Positions 19,690-61,035 of a DNA stretch of 64,000 bases are shown one piece after another. Origin of the DNA: Mobula hypostoma (lineage: Eukaryota); the NCBI RefSeq assembly GCF_963921235.1, contig NC_086108.1, positions 64,978,001 through 65,042,000 of the forward strand. Reading direction: 5' to 3'. The notes beneath the pieces are model-generated. The model did not search any database. It saw only the letters and a program-made list of their open reading frames with translations, and had not been told where the DNA came from. The number at the start of each line of letters is the position of its first letter. Positions within the stretch are counted from its first letter, which is position 1. Made by a program: the position numbers and the translations under genes.

Positions 19690-21087
19690 CACATACTATA
19701 CAGTGGATCAGTGGATTCTGGTTTTCTATACTCTGAGCTGCTTCCAGATCTGGAAAAATAATTGTTTAGTGACCTCACAAACTCAAAAGTCACACAGTGC
19801 AATGAAGTATTTTTTTCTTACAAATATTGCATTGTTTATCAAATATATGAAACAAATATTTGAAAGTGAAATGTAATATGTCTGTTTTAATTCTCTGAAA
19901 AGATTAAAGTTGGACTTTTATTGAAAATAGCAAAGATAAGTTTAATGTAGCTTTATTATCTACTTATTGTTGCATAGGTGTTTCTATACTGTAATAGTAT
20001 GCCAGTGAACCAGATAATAATGCCAATTGAAAACGCAGCAGCAACTAACTAGAGCTTTGTCACAGTGAGTGTCTGATGAGGGATCATTGGGCTTCTTGTG
20101 TTTGAGCATAACAGTACAATGTGTTTGGCTTGATATTAAGTGGATCCTAGCAACATGTCACATCAACAGTGTAGTGTCTCACGTGGGGCTACTTGGAGCC
20201 TAGTAACACATCACAACAGATTGCGTCTGGCTTGGTGATATGTAATGCATAACAACACTCCATAGAAATGGTGTGACTCAGGGACCCTGGCATCTTAGCA
20301 ACATATCAGACTGGCAGAGTATGTCTGTCTTGAGGATATTTGAAGCTTAACAATGCACCATGACATTGTTGTGTATATAGTTACATTAGTCAGCACAGTT
20401 GGATATGGGTAACCCTCTACTTCCTCAAAAGTAGCTGCCCACAAAGCAAAAACCTTTAAAAAAAAATCAGACATATCCAGAATACCAGTATTTCCTGACA
20501 CTTAAGCTCGGCTAATTAGTATATTATACATTCATGCACTTCTGACCTGACTTCTGTTACCAAACTGTAGCCTGCCAATCATGGTTTATGAGGCCAACTC
20601 CCTAATATAGTACTTTTGAGTGTTTCCCAGATGGCTGTTCAGTATCCTTGATTGTGGTGTTAAATAAATGTTCTATGATCCCCTAGAAGCAAGTGGAAGT
20701 TTGACACTTCTCGCACTTTCAGTTTCAAAATCCAATGAAATTCTTTTGCAGGTTTAGTTTAGATACAGGAGCATGGTTTATGAATGTAGCTCATCCTTGA
20801 AAACATTTTCTTGCATGCATACTCTTTTCTCTATTATTAACCTGACAAGGAATGTTGTTTGAAGTTGCTAAGTAAACATACTGAGGCACCATAGAACGTG
20901 AATGATGCAGAATGCTTTTTGCGCTGCTTAACTCTTTCTGTCTGCAATCTCTTCCCTCTCCCTCCTCTTCTCTCTTCCCCCCACTCATGCTGCTTTTGCA
21001 CCCCTTTCCCTCCCCCTCCACATTGCACAGGCTGTCGTTTCATGACCTAGCATTATTAAAATTGCAATTATCAATCATTCTTGCCAG

Positions 21088-21216
21088 GAATGTCATCGCC
21101 TACTACATTAAAGAAGTCAGAGAAGTCTGGTTTCAGCAGTCCCACGCCTTCGCAGACCACCTCCCCTCGAACGGCATTTACACATCATCATCGGCCTGTG
21201 ATTACAGCACCCAGAG
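21088..21216 (+). CDS. NFIA: Nuclear factor I A, internal coding exon (equivalent to mammalian exon 7), phase 1-1, 129 nt
   Basis: Acceptor ttcttgccAG (21086-21087) and donor AG|GTgagg (21217). Translates (G)[42 protein letters not shown], matching the recalled human [47 protein letters not shown]. Not in the ORF track in this frame. Confidence 0.95.
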
Positions 21217-23544
21217 GTGAGGCACGGCCGCTGAGAGCCCTTCCCTGTAGCTCCTACTAAAGAGTCTAGGGTCTTGGCCAAGTAGCTTGTAGTTTGGTGC
21301 CTTGAATTACTGCTGATACAGAAAATAAAAACTCTAGGAAATAAAAATCCGTGTGTGCATTATGGGCTATAAAACTGAGAGGTGATGGTTCTTTTTTCCA
21401 GTTTGATTGTAGAATAAGAGGGAGAGGATTCATAGTATTGTCTTTTAAATATTTAAAATAAAATCAAAAAAAATTGTTTAGTTAACAGCTGGTTACTTCC
21501 CATGTTTTCTGTCAATTCAGTGATTTTTTTCAATCAGCTATTTTTATCCAAGCTATATTTGAAAACCTCTTTCAATGACTTCATTATATGTACCAATTAT
21601 AATTTGCTGTGTCTGGTTGCTGTAATAATTAATGACACATGTCTCAGCTAGGTCATTTTCCCATCTAAATCTCCTTTCATCTTGTTATTAAAATTAAGAA
21701 ATTACAAAACTGCTCAGGATAAGTGACTGCGAGATGCATTTTAGCTCTCGATGTTATGGAGCATTCAATTATCATACATTTACAACGTTAGCAATTAAAT
21801 ATGAATAAAACCACATTTTTCCAGAATTTGGAATATATTTCGATCCTGTTCCTTAGGACTGAAATTTAAAACCATAACTGAATATTAAAAAAATCCAATG
21901 CCCATGAACTTCTACATTCTGAAAATGCTGAAAAGTATTCCTCTAAGATAAAAGGTGTATCGAAATTACCATAACACATGTCTTTTGCTTTTCATAGGTA
22001 TAGCCTTCAGCCCAATTTATATTTTCATATATATGACAATATGCAGCTATTTCTGTCAGCAGAATGTAAGAGACCATTCTTATCAACTAGTTCAGAATAG
22101 TTCTTACTATTGAATGGAGTGTGCTGAGCATTGGAAATTGGTGCTGAGTGAGCACCAATATCTGCCAATAAAAAGTAATGGGGTGAGACAAATCTCCAAA
22201 ATGGCATGATTGGATAAAATCTCAACTGAACTCTATAGACCATTAATGGCTTGCTCCCTGAAGGGCACATGGTGATGTCAGTGAGGTCATTCTGCGGGTA
22301 TGTAATGCTGTACTAATTCATTCTTCCAGTATAGCTCCTGTGTCTCTAAAGGATTATTTGTTCATGATAGGTGTGTTACTGAAGCTGTTGCCGGTATTGG
22401 GCTGCAAGCTTTTAAAATGCCATTCTCCACATGGAGATTCCATTAATAGCCACTTAATGGGTGCCAGTCATGCCCCTAAGAGAGAAATGGCGGAAAATAT
22501 TTTGCAACACCTTTTACTGCATTATTGGAAACGTTTTAAGATAAAATGGAACTTCAAAGTAATTTAAGAAGGATATAAAGGAGTCACTAAATGGAAGAAA
22601 GTAATTTCCTCAAAGAAAAAACAAGGTCAAACTCTTTTAAACAAGTTCAGTTATCATTGGCACAAACATCATTCCTTAACTTCAAAAAATGAATTAAAGT
22701 TAAAGCAAATGTGGGGGCGGAGGACAGCCTTGGGAGTGTAAACAAAAAGGTGGTATTCTCCATTGAAAATTCAACATCTGTTCAAACAGTAACGATTTGT
22801 ATCATTGGCCCATTCACTTATCAGAACAATTCCCTGCCATATATTTCTGATTTTCCCACGTACTTATGATAATAGTGAGGGAGTGGGGAGAGGCCTATGT
22901 TTGCAAGTGTGATGTCTGTTCCCAAGTGGCAATTTGATGTGTCATTGACTAATAATTGTAGGGATAAGTTTCTGTCTAACTTGTCATTTCTCCTTGCCAA
23001 CTTGTGCTCAGCACCTTCCTTTAGTGAGATGACAGAAACTGGAAACCAAGTGAAACAAAGAAAATTAAAACTTGACGTCATGTGACATGGTTTAAACACT
23101 ACTCATCATTTTGAAAGATATTTGTGAATGATCAGCTTCATTTAAATATCATGCTATTACAAAACCAGTTTATGAAATTTAAAACTGCTCCTGTAGAAGG
23201 GAAGTGAGGCTAATTAGATAGCTCTTCATACAATGAGTTGAATGGCTTCTGCCTTTGATTCCAAAGATACTGAGTAGCTTATTTTAAATTTCAATTGTTG
23301 AACAAAAAATAATTAGCTGAAATGTAGTACCAGTTATCATTTCTATAAAGCATATTTTGTTTAAAAAAGCACAAATACTAAGATCCATTTTCACTTTTTT
23401 GGTACCAAGGTCATCACTGACAAAACCATGAATGTAGTCATAACTTCTAGCAGTGTAAACAAGCTTGAAGTATGCTGGATAAGTTTATTTGTAATATTGA
23501 AGAAAATAAGTATGAAGTTTATTAGTAAGCATCACTCTGCATGT

Positions 23545-40429: not shown

Positions 40430-40600
40430 AATACAAGAACATCTGAAGATGCTGGAAATCCAAGGAACATATGCAAAACGCTGGAAGAACTCAGCAGGTC
40501 AGGCAACATCTACGGAAAAGAGTCCAAAACGTCAACTGTTTATGCTTTTCCGTAGGTGCTGCCTGGGCCACTGAGTTCCTTCAGCATTTTGTGTGTTACT
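40430..40600. mobile_element. Penelope-like pseudo-LTR, inverted insertion
   Basis: caaaacgctggaagaactcagcaggtcaggcaacatctacggaaaag pairs with cttttccgtaggtgctgcctgggccactgagttccttcagcattttg. A truncated hammerhead 3' half (aaaacgtcaactg) lies at the junction. Flanks ttaattgatg/ttagttgatg resemble a TSD. Confidence 0.75.
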
Positions 40601-54584: not shown

Positions 54585-54970
54585 ATGCCCCTCCCTTAAC
54601 CTTTCCTCAGTCCCTTTTCTCTCTGTCACCTCATCTCCTTACCTGCCCATCACCACCGTCTGGTGCTCCTCCCTCTTATTTTTCATCCATGCCCTTCTGC
54701 CCTCTCCTATCAGATTCCCCCTTCTCCAGCTTTGTATCTTTTTCACAATCATCTTCCCAGCTCTTTACTTCACCCCTTTCCCCCTCCAGATTTCACCTAT
54801 CACCCTGTGTTCCATCCCCACCACCACCACCCCAACCAACCTTCTAACTCTGACTCCTCATCTTTTTTCTCCAGTCCTGATGAAGGGTCTCAGCCCAAAA
54901 TATCGACTATACTCTTTTCCATAGATGCTGCCTGGCCTGCTGAGTTCCTCCAGCATTTTGTGTGGGTTGC
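54585..54970 (+). mobile_element. Penelope-like 3' UTR plus pseudo-LTR
   Basis: Polypyrimidine region, then ccagtcctgatgaagggtctcagccc...gatgctgcctggcctgctgagttcctccagcattttgtgtg. Confidence 0.8.
54872..54909 (+). ncRNA. Degenerate hammerhead motif in a Penelope pseudo-LTR (probably inactive)
   Basis: CAGUC-CUGAUGA-AGGGUCUCAGCCC-AAAAU-AUC-GACUA; GAAAC-GUC has become AAAAU-AUC, consistent with CpG decay. Confidence 0.65.
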
Positions 54971-56059: not shown

Positions 56060-57377
56060 GGCATTTGACAAGGTACCCCATGCAAGGCTTATTGAGAAAA
56101 TAAGGAGGCATGGGATCCAAGGGGAAATTGCTTTGTGAATCCAGAACTGGCTTGCCCACAGAAGGCAAAGAGTAGTTGTAGATGGATCATATTCTTCATG
56201 GAGGTCGATCACCAGTGGTGTGCCTCAGGGATCTGTTCTGGGACCCCTGCTCTTCGTGATCTTTATAAATGACCTGGATGAAGAATTGGGGGGATGGGTT
56301 AGTAAATTTACTGATGACACAAAGGTTGGAGGTGTTGTGCATAGTGCGGAGCGCTGTCAGAGGTTACAGCGTGACATTGATAGGATGCAAAAATGGGCTG
56401 AGAAGTGACAGATGGAGTTCAACCCAGATAAGTGTGAGGTGGTTCATTTTGGTAGGTCAAATATGATGACAGAAAATAGTATTAATGGTAAAACTCTTGG
56501 CAGTGTGGAGGATCAGAGGGATGTTGAGGTCTGAGTCAATAGGACACTCAAGGCTACTGTGCAGGTTGAATCTGTGGCTAAGAAAGCATACGGTGCATTG
56601 GCCTTCATCAATCATGGGATTGAGTTTAGGAGCTGAGAGGTAATGTTGCAGCTATACAGGACCCTGGTCAGACCCCACTTGGAGTACTTTGCTCAGTTCT
56701 GGTCGCCTTACTACAGGAAGGATGTGGAAACCATAGAAAGGGTGCAGAGGAGATTTAACAGGATGTTGCCTGGATTGGGGAGCATGCCTTATGAGAATAG
56801 ATTGAGTGAACTCGGCCTTTTCTCCTTGGAGTGATGGAGGATGAGAGGTGACCTGATAGAGGTGTATAAGATGATAAGAGGCATTGATCATGTGGATAGT
56901 TGGAGGCTTTTTACCAGGGCCAGAATGGCTAACGTGAGAGGGCAACACACATCAAAGTTGCTGGTGAACGCAACAGGCCAGGTACCTCTTCCTAGAGATG
57001 CTGCCTGGCCTGCTGCATTCACCAGCAACTTTGATGTGTGTTGCTTGAATTTCCAGCATCTGCAGAATTCCTGTTGTTAGCATGAGAGGGCACAATTTTA
57101 AGGTGCTTGGAAGTAAGTACAGAGGAAATATCAGGGGTAGGTTTTTTATGCAGAGAGTGGTGAGTGTGTGGAATGGGCTGCTGGTGCCGGTGGTGGTGGT
57201 GGAGGTGGAGGTGGATACGATAGGGTCTTTTTAGAGACCCCTGGATAGGTATATGGACTTCAGAAAAATAGTGGGCTATGGGTAACCCTAGGTAACTTCT
57301 CAGGTAAGGACATATTCGGCACTGCTTTGTGGGCCGAAGGGCCTGTATTGTGCTGTAGGTTTTCTATATTTCTATGT
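56060..57377 (+). mobile_element. CR1 LINE, 5'-truncated, same subfamily as 50091-54383
   Basis: AFDKVPHARL, GVPQGSVLGPLLFVIFINDLDE, FTDDTK, VRPHLEY; tail tttctatatttctatgt. Confidence 0.92.
56945..57077. mobile_element. Young Penelope pseudo-LTR inverted insertion inside the CR1
   Basis: 15-bp TSD taacgtgagagggca (56930-56944) / tagcatgagagggca (57078-57092). 41-bp inverted arms 56942-56982 and 57004-57044 with 2 mismatches. Confidence 0.85.
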
Positions 57378-57634
57378 TAATCAAAAGATAAGTTGTACAA
57401 GGCAAGAACAAATGGTCCGGAACCAGTTGGGCCCTTGGTCCAGAAAGAGGAAGACCCCAGAAGGAGGATTTAGGTTTATGGAAACTGGACATCTATGTCA
57501 AACCATCTATGAGGCATTTTGGACCAGGAAATTGGAGTTATCAAAATGGGGAGCACATGAGAGGTGTTGTGGATGTACATAGGAAGGGACTGAACAGGGG
57601 GAAACAGAATGGAGTCCAACTGTGAAGAACTCAG

Positions 57635-57870
57635 ACAACAGGAATTCTGCAGATGCTGGAAATTCAAGCAACACACATCAAAGTTGCTGGTAAACACTAC
57701 AGGCCAGGCAGCATCTCTAGGAAGAGGTACAGTCGACGTTTCAGGCCGAGACCCTTCGTCAGGACTAACTGAAGGAAGAGTTAGATGAAGGGTCTCAGCC
57801 TGAAACGTCTACTGTACCTCTTCCTAGAGATGCTGCCTGGCCTGCTGCGTTTACCAGCAATTTTGATGTA
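57635..57870. mobile_element. Young Penelope pseudo-LTR inverted insertion carrying hammerhead motifs
   Basis: Perfect 12-bp TSD TGAAGAACTCAG (57623-57634 and 57871-57882); ~85-bp inverted arms 57675-57759 and 57785-57869. Confidence 0.88.
57730..57767 (-). ncRNA. Minimal type I hammerhead ribozyme in a Penelope-like pseudo-LTR
   Basis: Minus strand reads UAGUC-CUGACGA-AGG(GUCUCGG)CCU-GAAAC-GUC-GACUG: helix I UAGUC/GACUG, core CUGANGA, helix II AGG/CCU, GAAA, vestigial helix III (palindromic ACGU) and a GUC cleavage triplet. Predicted cut between 57735 and 57734. Confidence 0.75.
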
Positions 57871-58539
57871 TGAAGAACTCAGTTCAGTGGGAGAAGATCA
57901 GTCCCAAGCAATTTGTATACGAATGCAGTCCAGTTTGTGGATCTTGGGTGAGAGAAGTGGGAAATATGAGGCTGGGACATTATCAGGTCATAAGCTGTGA
58001 AGGGAAATCTCCTGAGGTGATGAGATCGGTAATGGTGTTGGAAGCAGAGGCCTGCTGTTTGTTAGTGGCATCATGATCCAGGGGAAGATATGAGGAGGTG
58101 TCCAAGATCTGCCGTCTAACCTTTACATGGCAGAAGTCAGTGTGCCAGACCACAAGGGCATCACCATTATCTCCACTCAGTGTATAAAACCAAGGAGAAA
58201 CAGAATGGTTTTACTTTGCCATTTTCCATCAACTCTTAATTCCAGGTTATGTATCAGGAGGACAGCTGCAGCCAAGCCTCTGGATAAAAATAGTGAATGG
58301 ATGATGTTGGCATTATACAAATAATGTTCATAAAATCAAACAAAACATTAAAAGGAATTTTTGTAAGTCGATTGTAACATTCTGACATTCCCTTTAGGAT
58401 ACCAGTTGTGCATTCACTTATTTCCAATTTACTCCATGAAGACGTTTAAGTGAAAAATAATATCATAAATGTTGAAGTATGAAACCTCTAAAAAATTTGC
58501 CTCTGTTCAAAAATTATTCTATTTTTGAGATGTTTTGTG

Positions 58540-59318: not shown

Positions 59319-60847
59319 AGAATCATTGATTGCTGAAATACACTACTGCTCTTTACCTTAAATATAACTAGTAGATTAATTTTCATCTCTAGGATTCTTC
59401 AAGGTATCATTACATTTAAAATATTAAAGAAAGTTGTTCTAAATCTATACATCGTCCTGTGCTACAAGATTGACCTAGAGTTCAGAACTAAATTATTTGT
59501 CTTTTTTCTGTGCCCTGCATCTTGCACAATTAGCAAGTGCACTGTTCATTAGCCTTGACAAACGTTCTACAACCCTCAACAAATTTTCTAGTTAATAGAG
59601 TTAAAGAACAAACTGATTTTCTTTGCTTTTTCATTCCAAAGCACTTTACTTCACTTTAATTCCCAGAAGAACACATGCTCACGAAACAACATACAGGTTG
59701 CTGGAAATCTGGGGAACAAAACTGAAGATACTGCAAGTATTCAGCAATCCAGGCAGCATTTATGGGGAGAGAAAGAGAGTTAATGTTTTCAGTCTGTGAC
59801 CTATCATTATAAAATTTGCTTTGCTATTTCTTCAGCCAAATCTTACAACTGTCTTTTAATATTCTTTACATTTGTTTAAAGATCTTTACATTTTTATGTT
59901 GCAGCTCATTTTACATTTTTGGTATTATAATGTAGCATTAGTTAAGCTTAGCTGCCTCCTAATAGAACAAGGCAGATATTATTTAGCCACTCAGATATAA
60001 TTTTTGAAACTGGGTGTGATTGGATTTATAGTCCTTGTTGTGAAATATTGTCTCCTATCTGTCAGGTAGAATAATGTTCAATATTTCTAATTGAAAATCA
60101 TCCCACTTCAGAAGTGACACATTCATCATCTTTATTCCATGACTTCTTCAATGGGCTTTAATTGTTTAGTTGTAGAGTTCTGTTCACCTTCAACTGTGCA
60201 AACAGATGAAAACAAAACTGATCTGGCATATTACATATCCAGAAAGATAGGAAATTATTCAAAATGACTAGAATTTGTTTATATTCTTCAGGAGGAGGTA
60301 GCTGTCAGAATGAGGATTCTTGGGAAAATATATATAATTAGAGACAATATTCTGAGAAATGTTGACAACTATGAAAGTGAAATGTCAACATAATGCAGTT
60401 TTGTAACATTCTGGTTTTGGACACACTGTAGATATTATCATGTTCCTCAAAATGAAAATTAACTAAATGATGGTTTCACTTATAACATGTGTAGCTTATA
60501 ATAGTTATTAAATCTGACCTCAACATCCGCAATATCCCGAGTTTGCAATGTATTTAGTTTTAAATTTACAATAGTTTTGTATTGATATGTTGATCCATTT
60601 GAAGAATACATAGTCTACATTGGAACATTCTGATAGAGGGTGAATTGTTTCTACAAATACTCTATAAATAAAAGTTAATGCATGGTAAGGAAAATTACAA
60701 TGTGGTAATTTTCTGTAAGGCATTTAACTATAATTATGTTCACAATTGGCATTTATTTGTGTAGTTTGTACTTTGAAAACAATGTTTGATTGCTGTAACA
60801 TTTTGAGCTGATTTGGTTTATAATATTTTCTCTCTTTTTTTTTACAG

Positions 60848-61035
60848 CAAGTCCTCATGCAACAGCCTCAACTCTACATTTTCCAACATCTCCCATCATC
60901 CAGCAGCCAGGTCCTTATTTCTCACACACGGCCATCCGCTATCATCCACACCCTAGTCAGGAGAGCCTGAAGGAATTTGTTCAACTTGTCTGCCCTGACA
61001 CCAGCCAGCAGTCAGGACAGGTGGGGTTTCTAAAT
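60848..61035 (+). CDS. NFIA: Nuclear factor I A, next coding exon (equivalent to mammalian exon 8), phase 1-0, 188 nt
   Basis: Long pyrimidine tract plus tttacAG (60846-60847) and donor AAT|GTaaga (61036). Translates (A)[62 protein letters not shown], close to human [64 protein letters not shown]. Joins the previous exon in frame (G|CA = Ala). Confidence 0.96.

Follow-up and report, generated by a model that had tools for sequence, protein, structure and literature searches.

A minimal type I hammerhead motif in a truncated, inverted Penelope-like end, antisense in an NFI-family intron

Introduction

Minimal type I hammerhead ribozymes reside in the pseudo-LTRs of metazoan Penelope-like elements, including the fish elements Xena, Poseidon and Neptune (Cervera and de la Pena 2014, PMC4209133), as an earlier note on the present DNA had rightly stated. 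The motifs reported in that work lie mostly in truncated copies, and close pairs on opposite strands, as also seen here, were already described; two supplements of the paper contain no shark or ray terms. Elements of the Neptune clade, which belongs to the EN+ Penelope-like elements, encode a reverse transcriptase (RT), a CX2-5CxxC linker and, at the C-terminus, a GIY-YIG nuclease, and are arranged as a partial tandem with an inverted, 5'-truncated copy and, at one of the ends, a tail of 30-40 bp (Craig et al. 2021, PMC8557442). The Penelope element of D. virilis has an internal promoter (PMC2377424). For the Poseidon element PAc of Anolis carolinensis, ribozyme mutations were without effect on insertion in vitro, and no reads starting at the cut site were described (Frangieh et al. 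2024, PMC11167929). Type I hammerheads of pseudo-LTR origin also occur in non-LTR retrozymes, defined as arrays of tandem units that each carry a ribozyme (bioRxiv 10.64898/2026.07.22.740005). The role of the ribozyme in Penelope-like elements is still open in the field (PMC8557442). Here we analyze a motif of this kind in a 64,000-nucleotide stretch of genomic DNA (the window).

Results

The hammerhead motif

On its minus strand, the window carries a 38-base motif that reads UAGUC-CUGACGA-AGGGUCUCGGCCU-GAAA-C-GUC-GACUG from 57767 to 57730. Its parts are as follows.

57730..57767, minus strand: minimal type I hammerhead, defined by sequence, descriptor match and aligned copies
57767-57763 with 57734-57730, minus strand: helix I
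57762-57756, minus strand: CUGACGA
57755, minus strand: unpaired A
57754-57751 with 57746-57743, minus strand: helix II
57742-57739, minus strand: GAAA
57738-57735, minus strand: C15.2-G16.2-U16.1-C17

The core elements CUGANGA, GAAA and NUH follow each other in order, together with helices I and II. As the earlier note had claimed, all conserved core nucleotides are present, helix I pairs UAGUC with GACUG over 5 bp, helix III is reduced to the palindromic ACGU without a loop, and cleavage after GUC would fall between 57735 and 57734. Positions are given below relative to this site, with C17 (window 57735) as 0. The motif thus resembles the minimal hammerheads of PMC4209133 in being type I, in lacking loop III, in the palindromic 15.2-16.2, in a helix I of 4-5 bp and in the unpaired nucleotide between A9 and 10.1.

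That last likeness depends on the register of helix II, for which AGG/CCU had been proposed. A bulged A followed by GGGU/GCCU provides the better register: its first pair is kept, as G.U or G-C, in 22 of 24 aligned variant copies, which were hand-picked from one genome, while the first pair of the AGG/CCU register (A-U) is broken in 12 of the 24, since many copies have a C at position -8. Among the same 24 copies we found no compensatory helix changes beyond CpG-type decay; two-sided changes occupied three cells, a number reached by 104 of 500 shuffles, the copies resembling each other too closely.

A hammerhead descriptor run over both strands matched the window solely at 57767-57730, and in 60 dinucleotide shuffles its loose form gave 0.05 matches per window and its strict form none. 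An Rfam scan reported nothing at the gathering score and no hammerhead family even at E<=10. With a z of -1.24, an uninformative measure for the motif by itself, the 38-mer has an unremarkable folding energy; in isolation, the 38-mer is predicted to form one extended hairpin, and the preferred fold pairs core bases with the cleavage triplet. For dimers, the predicted energy was -12.7 kcal/mol for the double-hammerhead fold versus -31.5 for the best co-fold, with -22.1 for a natural G-C variant.

Across the family, core positions are kept in 89-97 of 97 young copies. Among 266 core matches, CGTC follows GAAA directly in 196, and the next commonest sequences are CpG-decay forms. The first pair of helix II, 10.1-11.1, is G.U in the window copy and in 84 of the 97 young copies. 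This dominant young subfamily, with a 4-bp helix II that opens with a wobble, thereby differs from the typical minimal hammerhead of PMC4209133. The pair G10.1-C11.1, absent from the window copy, is found in 12 of the 97 young copies and in 15 of 30 older ones; we do not treat it as defining, because it lies outside the PMC4209133 descriptor and is only typical there. Three loci (L117, L119 and L231) form a separate older subfamily with the loop II variant UCCG and G10.1-C11.1, for which the hammerhead fold is predicted to be more stable.

The 236-bp insertion

The motif lies within a 236-bp insertion at 57635-57870 that consists of two arms in inverted orientation, with a tail on one of them and a 12-bp target duplication around both.

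57623..57634, no strand: left target site duplication, 12 bp, from sequence and script
57635..57783, minus strand: element-sense arm, a 5'-truncated pseudo-LTR from -48 to +100 including the 3' tail, by 95-99% identity to its best matches in the genome and by continuity with the RT/GIY-YIG frame in longer copies
57635..57670, minus strand: tail of about 35 nt, on the element-sense arm only, delimited by the two clusters of arm 3' ends
57762..57768, minus strand: pyrimidine-rich YYAGTCC, -33..-27, from sequence
57784..57870, plus strand: inverted, 5'-truncated second arm, -25 to +61, from sequence and inverted repeat
57871..57882, no strand: right target site duplication, 12 bp, from sequence and script

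The two arms form an 89-nt inverted repeat (I3) of 91% identity. Missing from the plus-strand arm are C3-U4 and the 5' strand of helix I, and its +1 position reads T instead of G. On either strand, the insertion as a whole is predicted to fold into a long hairpin (z -19.2), in which helices I and II have a predicted probability of 0.0; the inverted arm is thus predicted to pair with the whole motif and to bury it. Self-cleavage of the window copy is unlikely, because the intact motif is antisense to the pre-mRNA, the sense-strand arm is without C3-U4 and the inverted arm would pair with the motif.

In introns, insertions that fold in this way could be taken for microRNA-like or A-to-I-edited double-stranded RNA, or could behave as such. 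Rfam MIR6020 matched the hairpin at 57717-57827 with 54.7 bits versus a cut-off of 118, a match due to the long hairpin only.

The host gene and neighboring family segments

Two exons on the plus strand flank the insertion.

21084..21218, plus strand: upstream CTF_NFI-domain exon (PF00859, E 1.9e-8, translation)
60844..61020, plus strand: downstream CTF_NFI-domain exon (PF00859, E 6.7e-20)

The location inside NFIA that had been claimed therefore stands as far as an intron of an NFI-family gene, with PF00859 exons on both sides; among the four NFI loci of the genome, the peptide suggests NFIA as the paralogue. With the host exons on the plus and the motif on the minus strand, the intact hammerhead is antisense to the gene. 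Its intronic position by itself might invite the idea that the ribozyme was co-opted to cut or regulate NFI pre-mRNA. We regard this as extremely improbable: the intact motif is on the wrong strand, on which ground host regulation was rejected, the nearby sense-strand segments of the family (57784-57870, 56982-57082 and 54873-54970) have no core or a broken one, and the insertion is a young copy among about 58,000.

Further relatives occur in the window. A second young copy at 56945-57082, an inverted pair without a ribozyme and with a 10-bp target duplication, has its sense arm on the plus strand starting at +5 and sits in the terminal part of a LINE-like repeat (about 56065-57371). The plus-strand segment 54873-54970 is a pseudo-LTR of an older subfamily whose hammerhead has decayed, with G12 changed to A and the cleavage triplet affected by CpG decay, and 437-549 and 40442-40595 are older palindromic relatives from which the ribozyme part is missing.

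The coding family

A 31-base pattern of the motif matched the genome 58,459 times and a 26-mer from the tail 54,933 times, the reversed control giving 0 in either case, and the 30 closest copies retrieved match at 96-100% identity over about 140 bases, in agreement with the description of a young, very common repeat. Target duplications of at least 12 bp flank 17 of these 30 closest copies. Most of the 30 extend upstream, within the up to 1,500 bases examined, into a frame encoding an RT thumb, a cysteine linker and GIY-YIG, which bears out the assignment to a Penelope-type pseudo-LTR.

In this frame, the RT precedes a C-terminal GIY-YIG, as in EN+ Penelope-like elements, and DKG, YIDD and a C-X4-C-X2-C linker are directly visible in translation, the linker in L061, L064 and L066. 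Pfam matches to RT (PF00078, RVT_1; E 7.5e-6; 26.2 of 29.6 bits) and GIY-YIG (PF01541; E 2e-4; 22.1 of 22.6 bits) fall just under the curated cut-offs, and the frame of L064 has no Pfam match; that of L062 was placed among animal RT clusters in the ESM Atlas. All six extended copies are interrupted, none having an unbroken frame. L061 is full length, with an inverted arm, a partial tandem, the frame and a second pseudo-LTR; its ribozymes lie 3,506 bp apart, which is the unit length, and its frame runs from an ATG at +139, 139 nt past the first cleavage site, to a stop at -325. The pseudo-LTR partial tandem, the inverted 5'-truncated copy and the 30-40 bp tail known from Neptune are all found in L061 and the young arms. 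On the evidence of these sequences, the 236-bp insertion is the 5'-truncated end of a 3.5-kb, putatively Neptune-type Penelope-like element encoding an RT and a GIY-YIG nuclease. The linker motif, which Nematis shares (PMC8557442), points to the Neptune clade. In contrast to Neptune as described in PMC8557442, clear target duplications of 12-16 bp are present here, and no microsatellite bias was noticed in the loci viewed.

Two side observations concern individual loci. The L061 unit has, at about -52..-30, a branch-point-like CTTACT(A/C)AC, a pyrimidine tract and two AG before helix I, and could provide a cryptic splice acceptor if sense to a gene. At L062 (G000:C62:54437000-54446500), a 404-residue frame, by eye RNase H/integrase-like of an LTR element, adjoins the Penelope-like copy.

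Where copies end

Copy ends were mapped in 90 loci that add up to 690,780 bases and lie within the first 4.8 Mb of contig C1, all picked by the tail pattern except one from the ribozyme list. The 226 arms found yielded 147 young arms (>=88% identity, away from locus edges), the other 79 being dropped from the end counts; arm ends were defined by BLAST and are accurate to a few bases only. Inverted pairs contain 99 of the 147, and 48 were scored as solo, a few of them misclassified. The 3' ends fall into two clusters, +48..+76 and +93..+105. At the other end, 57 arms begin at -45..-16, or 0.21 per 10 nt, compared with 0.028 per 10 nt at -15..+63 and 0.012 at -1000..-81. Altogether, 105 of the 147 reach no further upstream than 80 nt from the cleavage site.

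Such short copies could in principle constitute a separate non-autonomous, SINE- or retrozyme-like family that is self-cleaving and spreads as its own short unit. Apart from the shortness of the arms, this reading is favored by the one preferred start and two preferred ends of solo copies, by a report of retrozymes in one chondrichthyan (bioRxiv 10.64898/2026.07.22.740005) and by a single triple tandem, L247 (G000:C2:12241500-12244700), with three 145-bp repeats and intact cores on one strand, a natural setting for dimers. However, these tandem repeats are inverted pairs rather than head-to-tail monomers, as is the window copy, and short arrays of head-to-tail monomers did not come to notice in the sampled loci, which were viewed incidentally for this feature. 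Moreover, the short copies are 93-98% identical to the ends of long coding ones, lengths form a continuum up to 2.9 kb, and no sequence specific to the short form was seen. Retrozyme units would span from cut site to cut site, yet the copies here start about 30 nt earlier. A lack of coding capacity does not hold either, as 34 of the 147 young arms reach the frame. We therefore consider a family of its own very unlikely, and the stand-alone, SINE-like family proposed in the earlier note gives way to the ends of a coding element, the closest copies continuing upstream into the frame at 90-97% identity. The locus L223 shares a near-identical single junction and flank with L247.

Genome-wide, patterns that required three non-element bases before a given start, and that differ in sensitivity, found 3,185 starts at -31, 2,260 at -30, 972 at -29, 147 at -10 and 396 at +1; 10 of 30 inspected -31 starts belong to older subfamilies. 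In the first 30 loci of each set, solo copies with a target duplication numbered 2 at -31, 11 at -30, 5 at -29 and 0 at +1. Position -30 (window 57765) is thus the commonest 5' end of solo copies, exceeding +1 (p=0.0003) and -31 (p=0.01), while the difference from -29 is not significant (p=0.14).

Although +1 starts exceed the -10 control, 20 of the 30 inspected were scored as inversion junctions that use helix I microhomology, and several others are junction or deletion artefacts; three copies (L136, L142 and L156) are unexplained. One +1 locus, L133, scored by script as a solo copy with a target duplication, was rejected as a tandem duplication. With no solo copy with a target duplication among the 30, cleavage products were rejected as templates: cleaved RNA leaves no fossil sign of having been copied. 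Separately, L037 and L090, at a distance of 2.8 Mb from each other, have their 5' flank and a +6 start in common and differ 3' of the tail, possibly representing a duplicated or transduced segment.

Origin of the 5' end near -30

The pile-up of 5' ends might be purely mechanical, arising without any promoter from stalling of the RT, from fold-back of the new DNA after helix I or from a 5'-3' exonuclease that halts at a protein-bound ribozyme. The extended hairpin predicted for the 38-mer fits this idea, as does the extent of the peak from -16 to -60; most short arms, furthermore, lie in inverted pairs joined by microhomologies of 1-4 nt. In inverted pairs the peak is wide, and there it could stem from short microhomologies around helix I. 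On the other hand, a structural stall would be expected on entry into the ribozyme (+5), not on exit, and in seven of the eight solo copies with a duplication directly adjoining -30, the flank is not the source of the G, which looks like run-off at a template end. On balance we hold a mechanical origin to be unlikely, though a serious contender.

A 3' splice site ending at -30 would be another source. The sequence offers a branch-point-like CTTACTAAC, a pyrimidine tract and an AG at -31/-30, older subfamilies retain the pyrimidine tract and CAG in the -30 region, and the intron of D. virilis Penelope ends at helix I (PMC4209133, PMC2377424). Yet among 90 copies starting at -31, -30 and -29, none had a shared upstream exon joined to the motif, so that spliced copies were rejected, and solo copies adjoin the target duplication either immediately or across 1-6 additional bases. 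In RNA, no GT..AG joint was found among the 15 of 31 joints that were listed, from four contig runs of guessed type that show no starts or ends and so speak neither for nor against expression. We judge a splice site to be quite improbable.

Young and older copies alike retain the YYAGTCC at -33..-27; it presumably fits both an initiator-like and a 3' splice-site-like consensus and is a candidate for either. An internal promoter, as known from D. virilis Penelope (PMC2377424), is our first choice for the end at -30, ahead of stalling, exonuclease trimming and a splice acceptor.

Discussion

The ribozyme, its pseudo-LTR setting, the opposite-strand pairs, the inversion and the tail are all already published, and the finding as originally written is ordinary, since motif and setting have been known since 2014. 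In the published literature that we surveyed, with Repbase/Dfam and some supplements lying outside the survey, we found no description of this family or of its 5' end preference. The roughly 58,000 pattern matches compare with 4,000 and 9,000 motifs for coelacanth and Xenopus (PMC4209133), numbers obtained by different methods. Unlike the arrays of non-LTR retrozymes (bioRxiv 10.64898/2026.07.22.740005), the window copy is a single inverted pair from a coding family.

The closest parallel in behavior is the anole element PAc (PMC11167929). The two 3' end clusters, about 35 nt apart, are as predicted by its two internal RT start sites; as in PAc, both strands are probably extended here, and in both systems cleaved RNA gives no sign of serving as template. 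The start codon here lies past the cut site, while the frame of PAc begins inside the ribozyme, and none of the PAc features that we surveyed was a preferred 5' end at the edge of the ribozyme.

By analogy with anole Poseidon (PMC11167929), the element protein would nick both target strands, and target-primed reverse transcription would start inside the element's own RNA at two sites, about +65 and about +100, giving rise to one arm or to two head-to-head arms. The 5' terminus of much of the template RNA may coincide with the ribozyme's front, at about -30, such that the enzyme would run off after about 100-135 nt and leave SINE-sized copies with the whole, uncleaved motif. The family motif itself would cut weakly, and only as a dimer or with protein help (PMC4209133, PMC6765202, PMC11167929); as these studies suggest, cutting would not be what makes the short copies.

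Taken together, we consider it probable that the motif is a minimal type I hammerhead in a truncated, inverted Penelope-like end, antisense in an NFI intron and predicted not to cut there, and that SINE-sized copies of the family stem from run-off near -30. Much more tentatively, and as a proposal that could easily prove wrong, the transcript of this Neptune-type family may start at the first hammerhead bases, from a promoter overlapping helix I, so that run-off would mass-produce tens of thousands of SINE-sized, ribozyme-intact insertions without cleavage, the youngest subfamily having swapped G10.1-C11.1 for a wobble.

Repeat libraries may mislabel such Penelope-like ends as SINEs or microRNA-like hairpins. 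The approximately 58,000 young copies would amount to a natural record of which RNA is copied, namely RNA that was not cleaved and whose end lies at the ribozyme front, rather than products of cleavage. Such a record of uncleaved templates would support the in vitro result on the anole element and give a sharp prediction for the 5' ends of the RNA.
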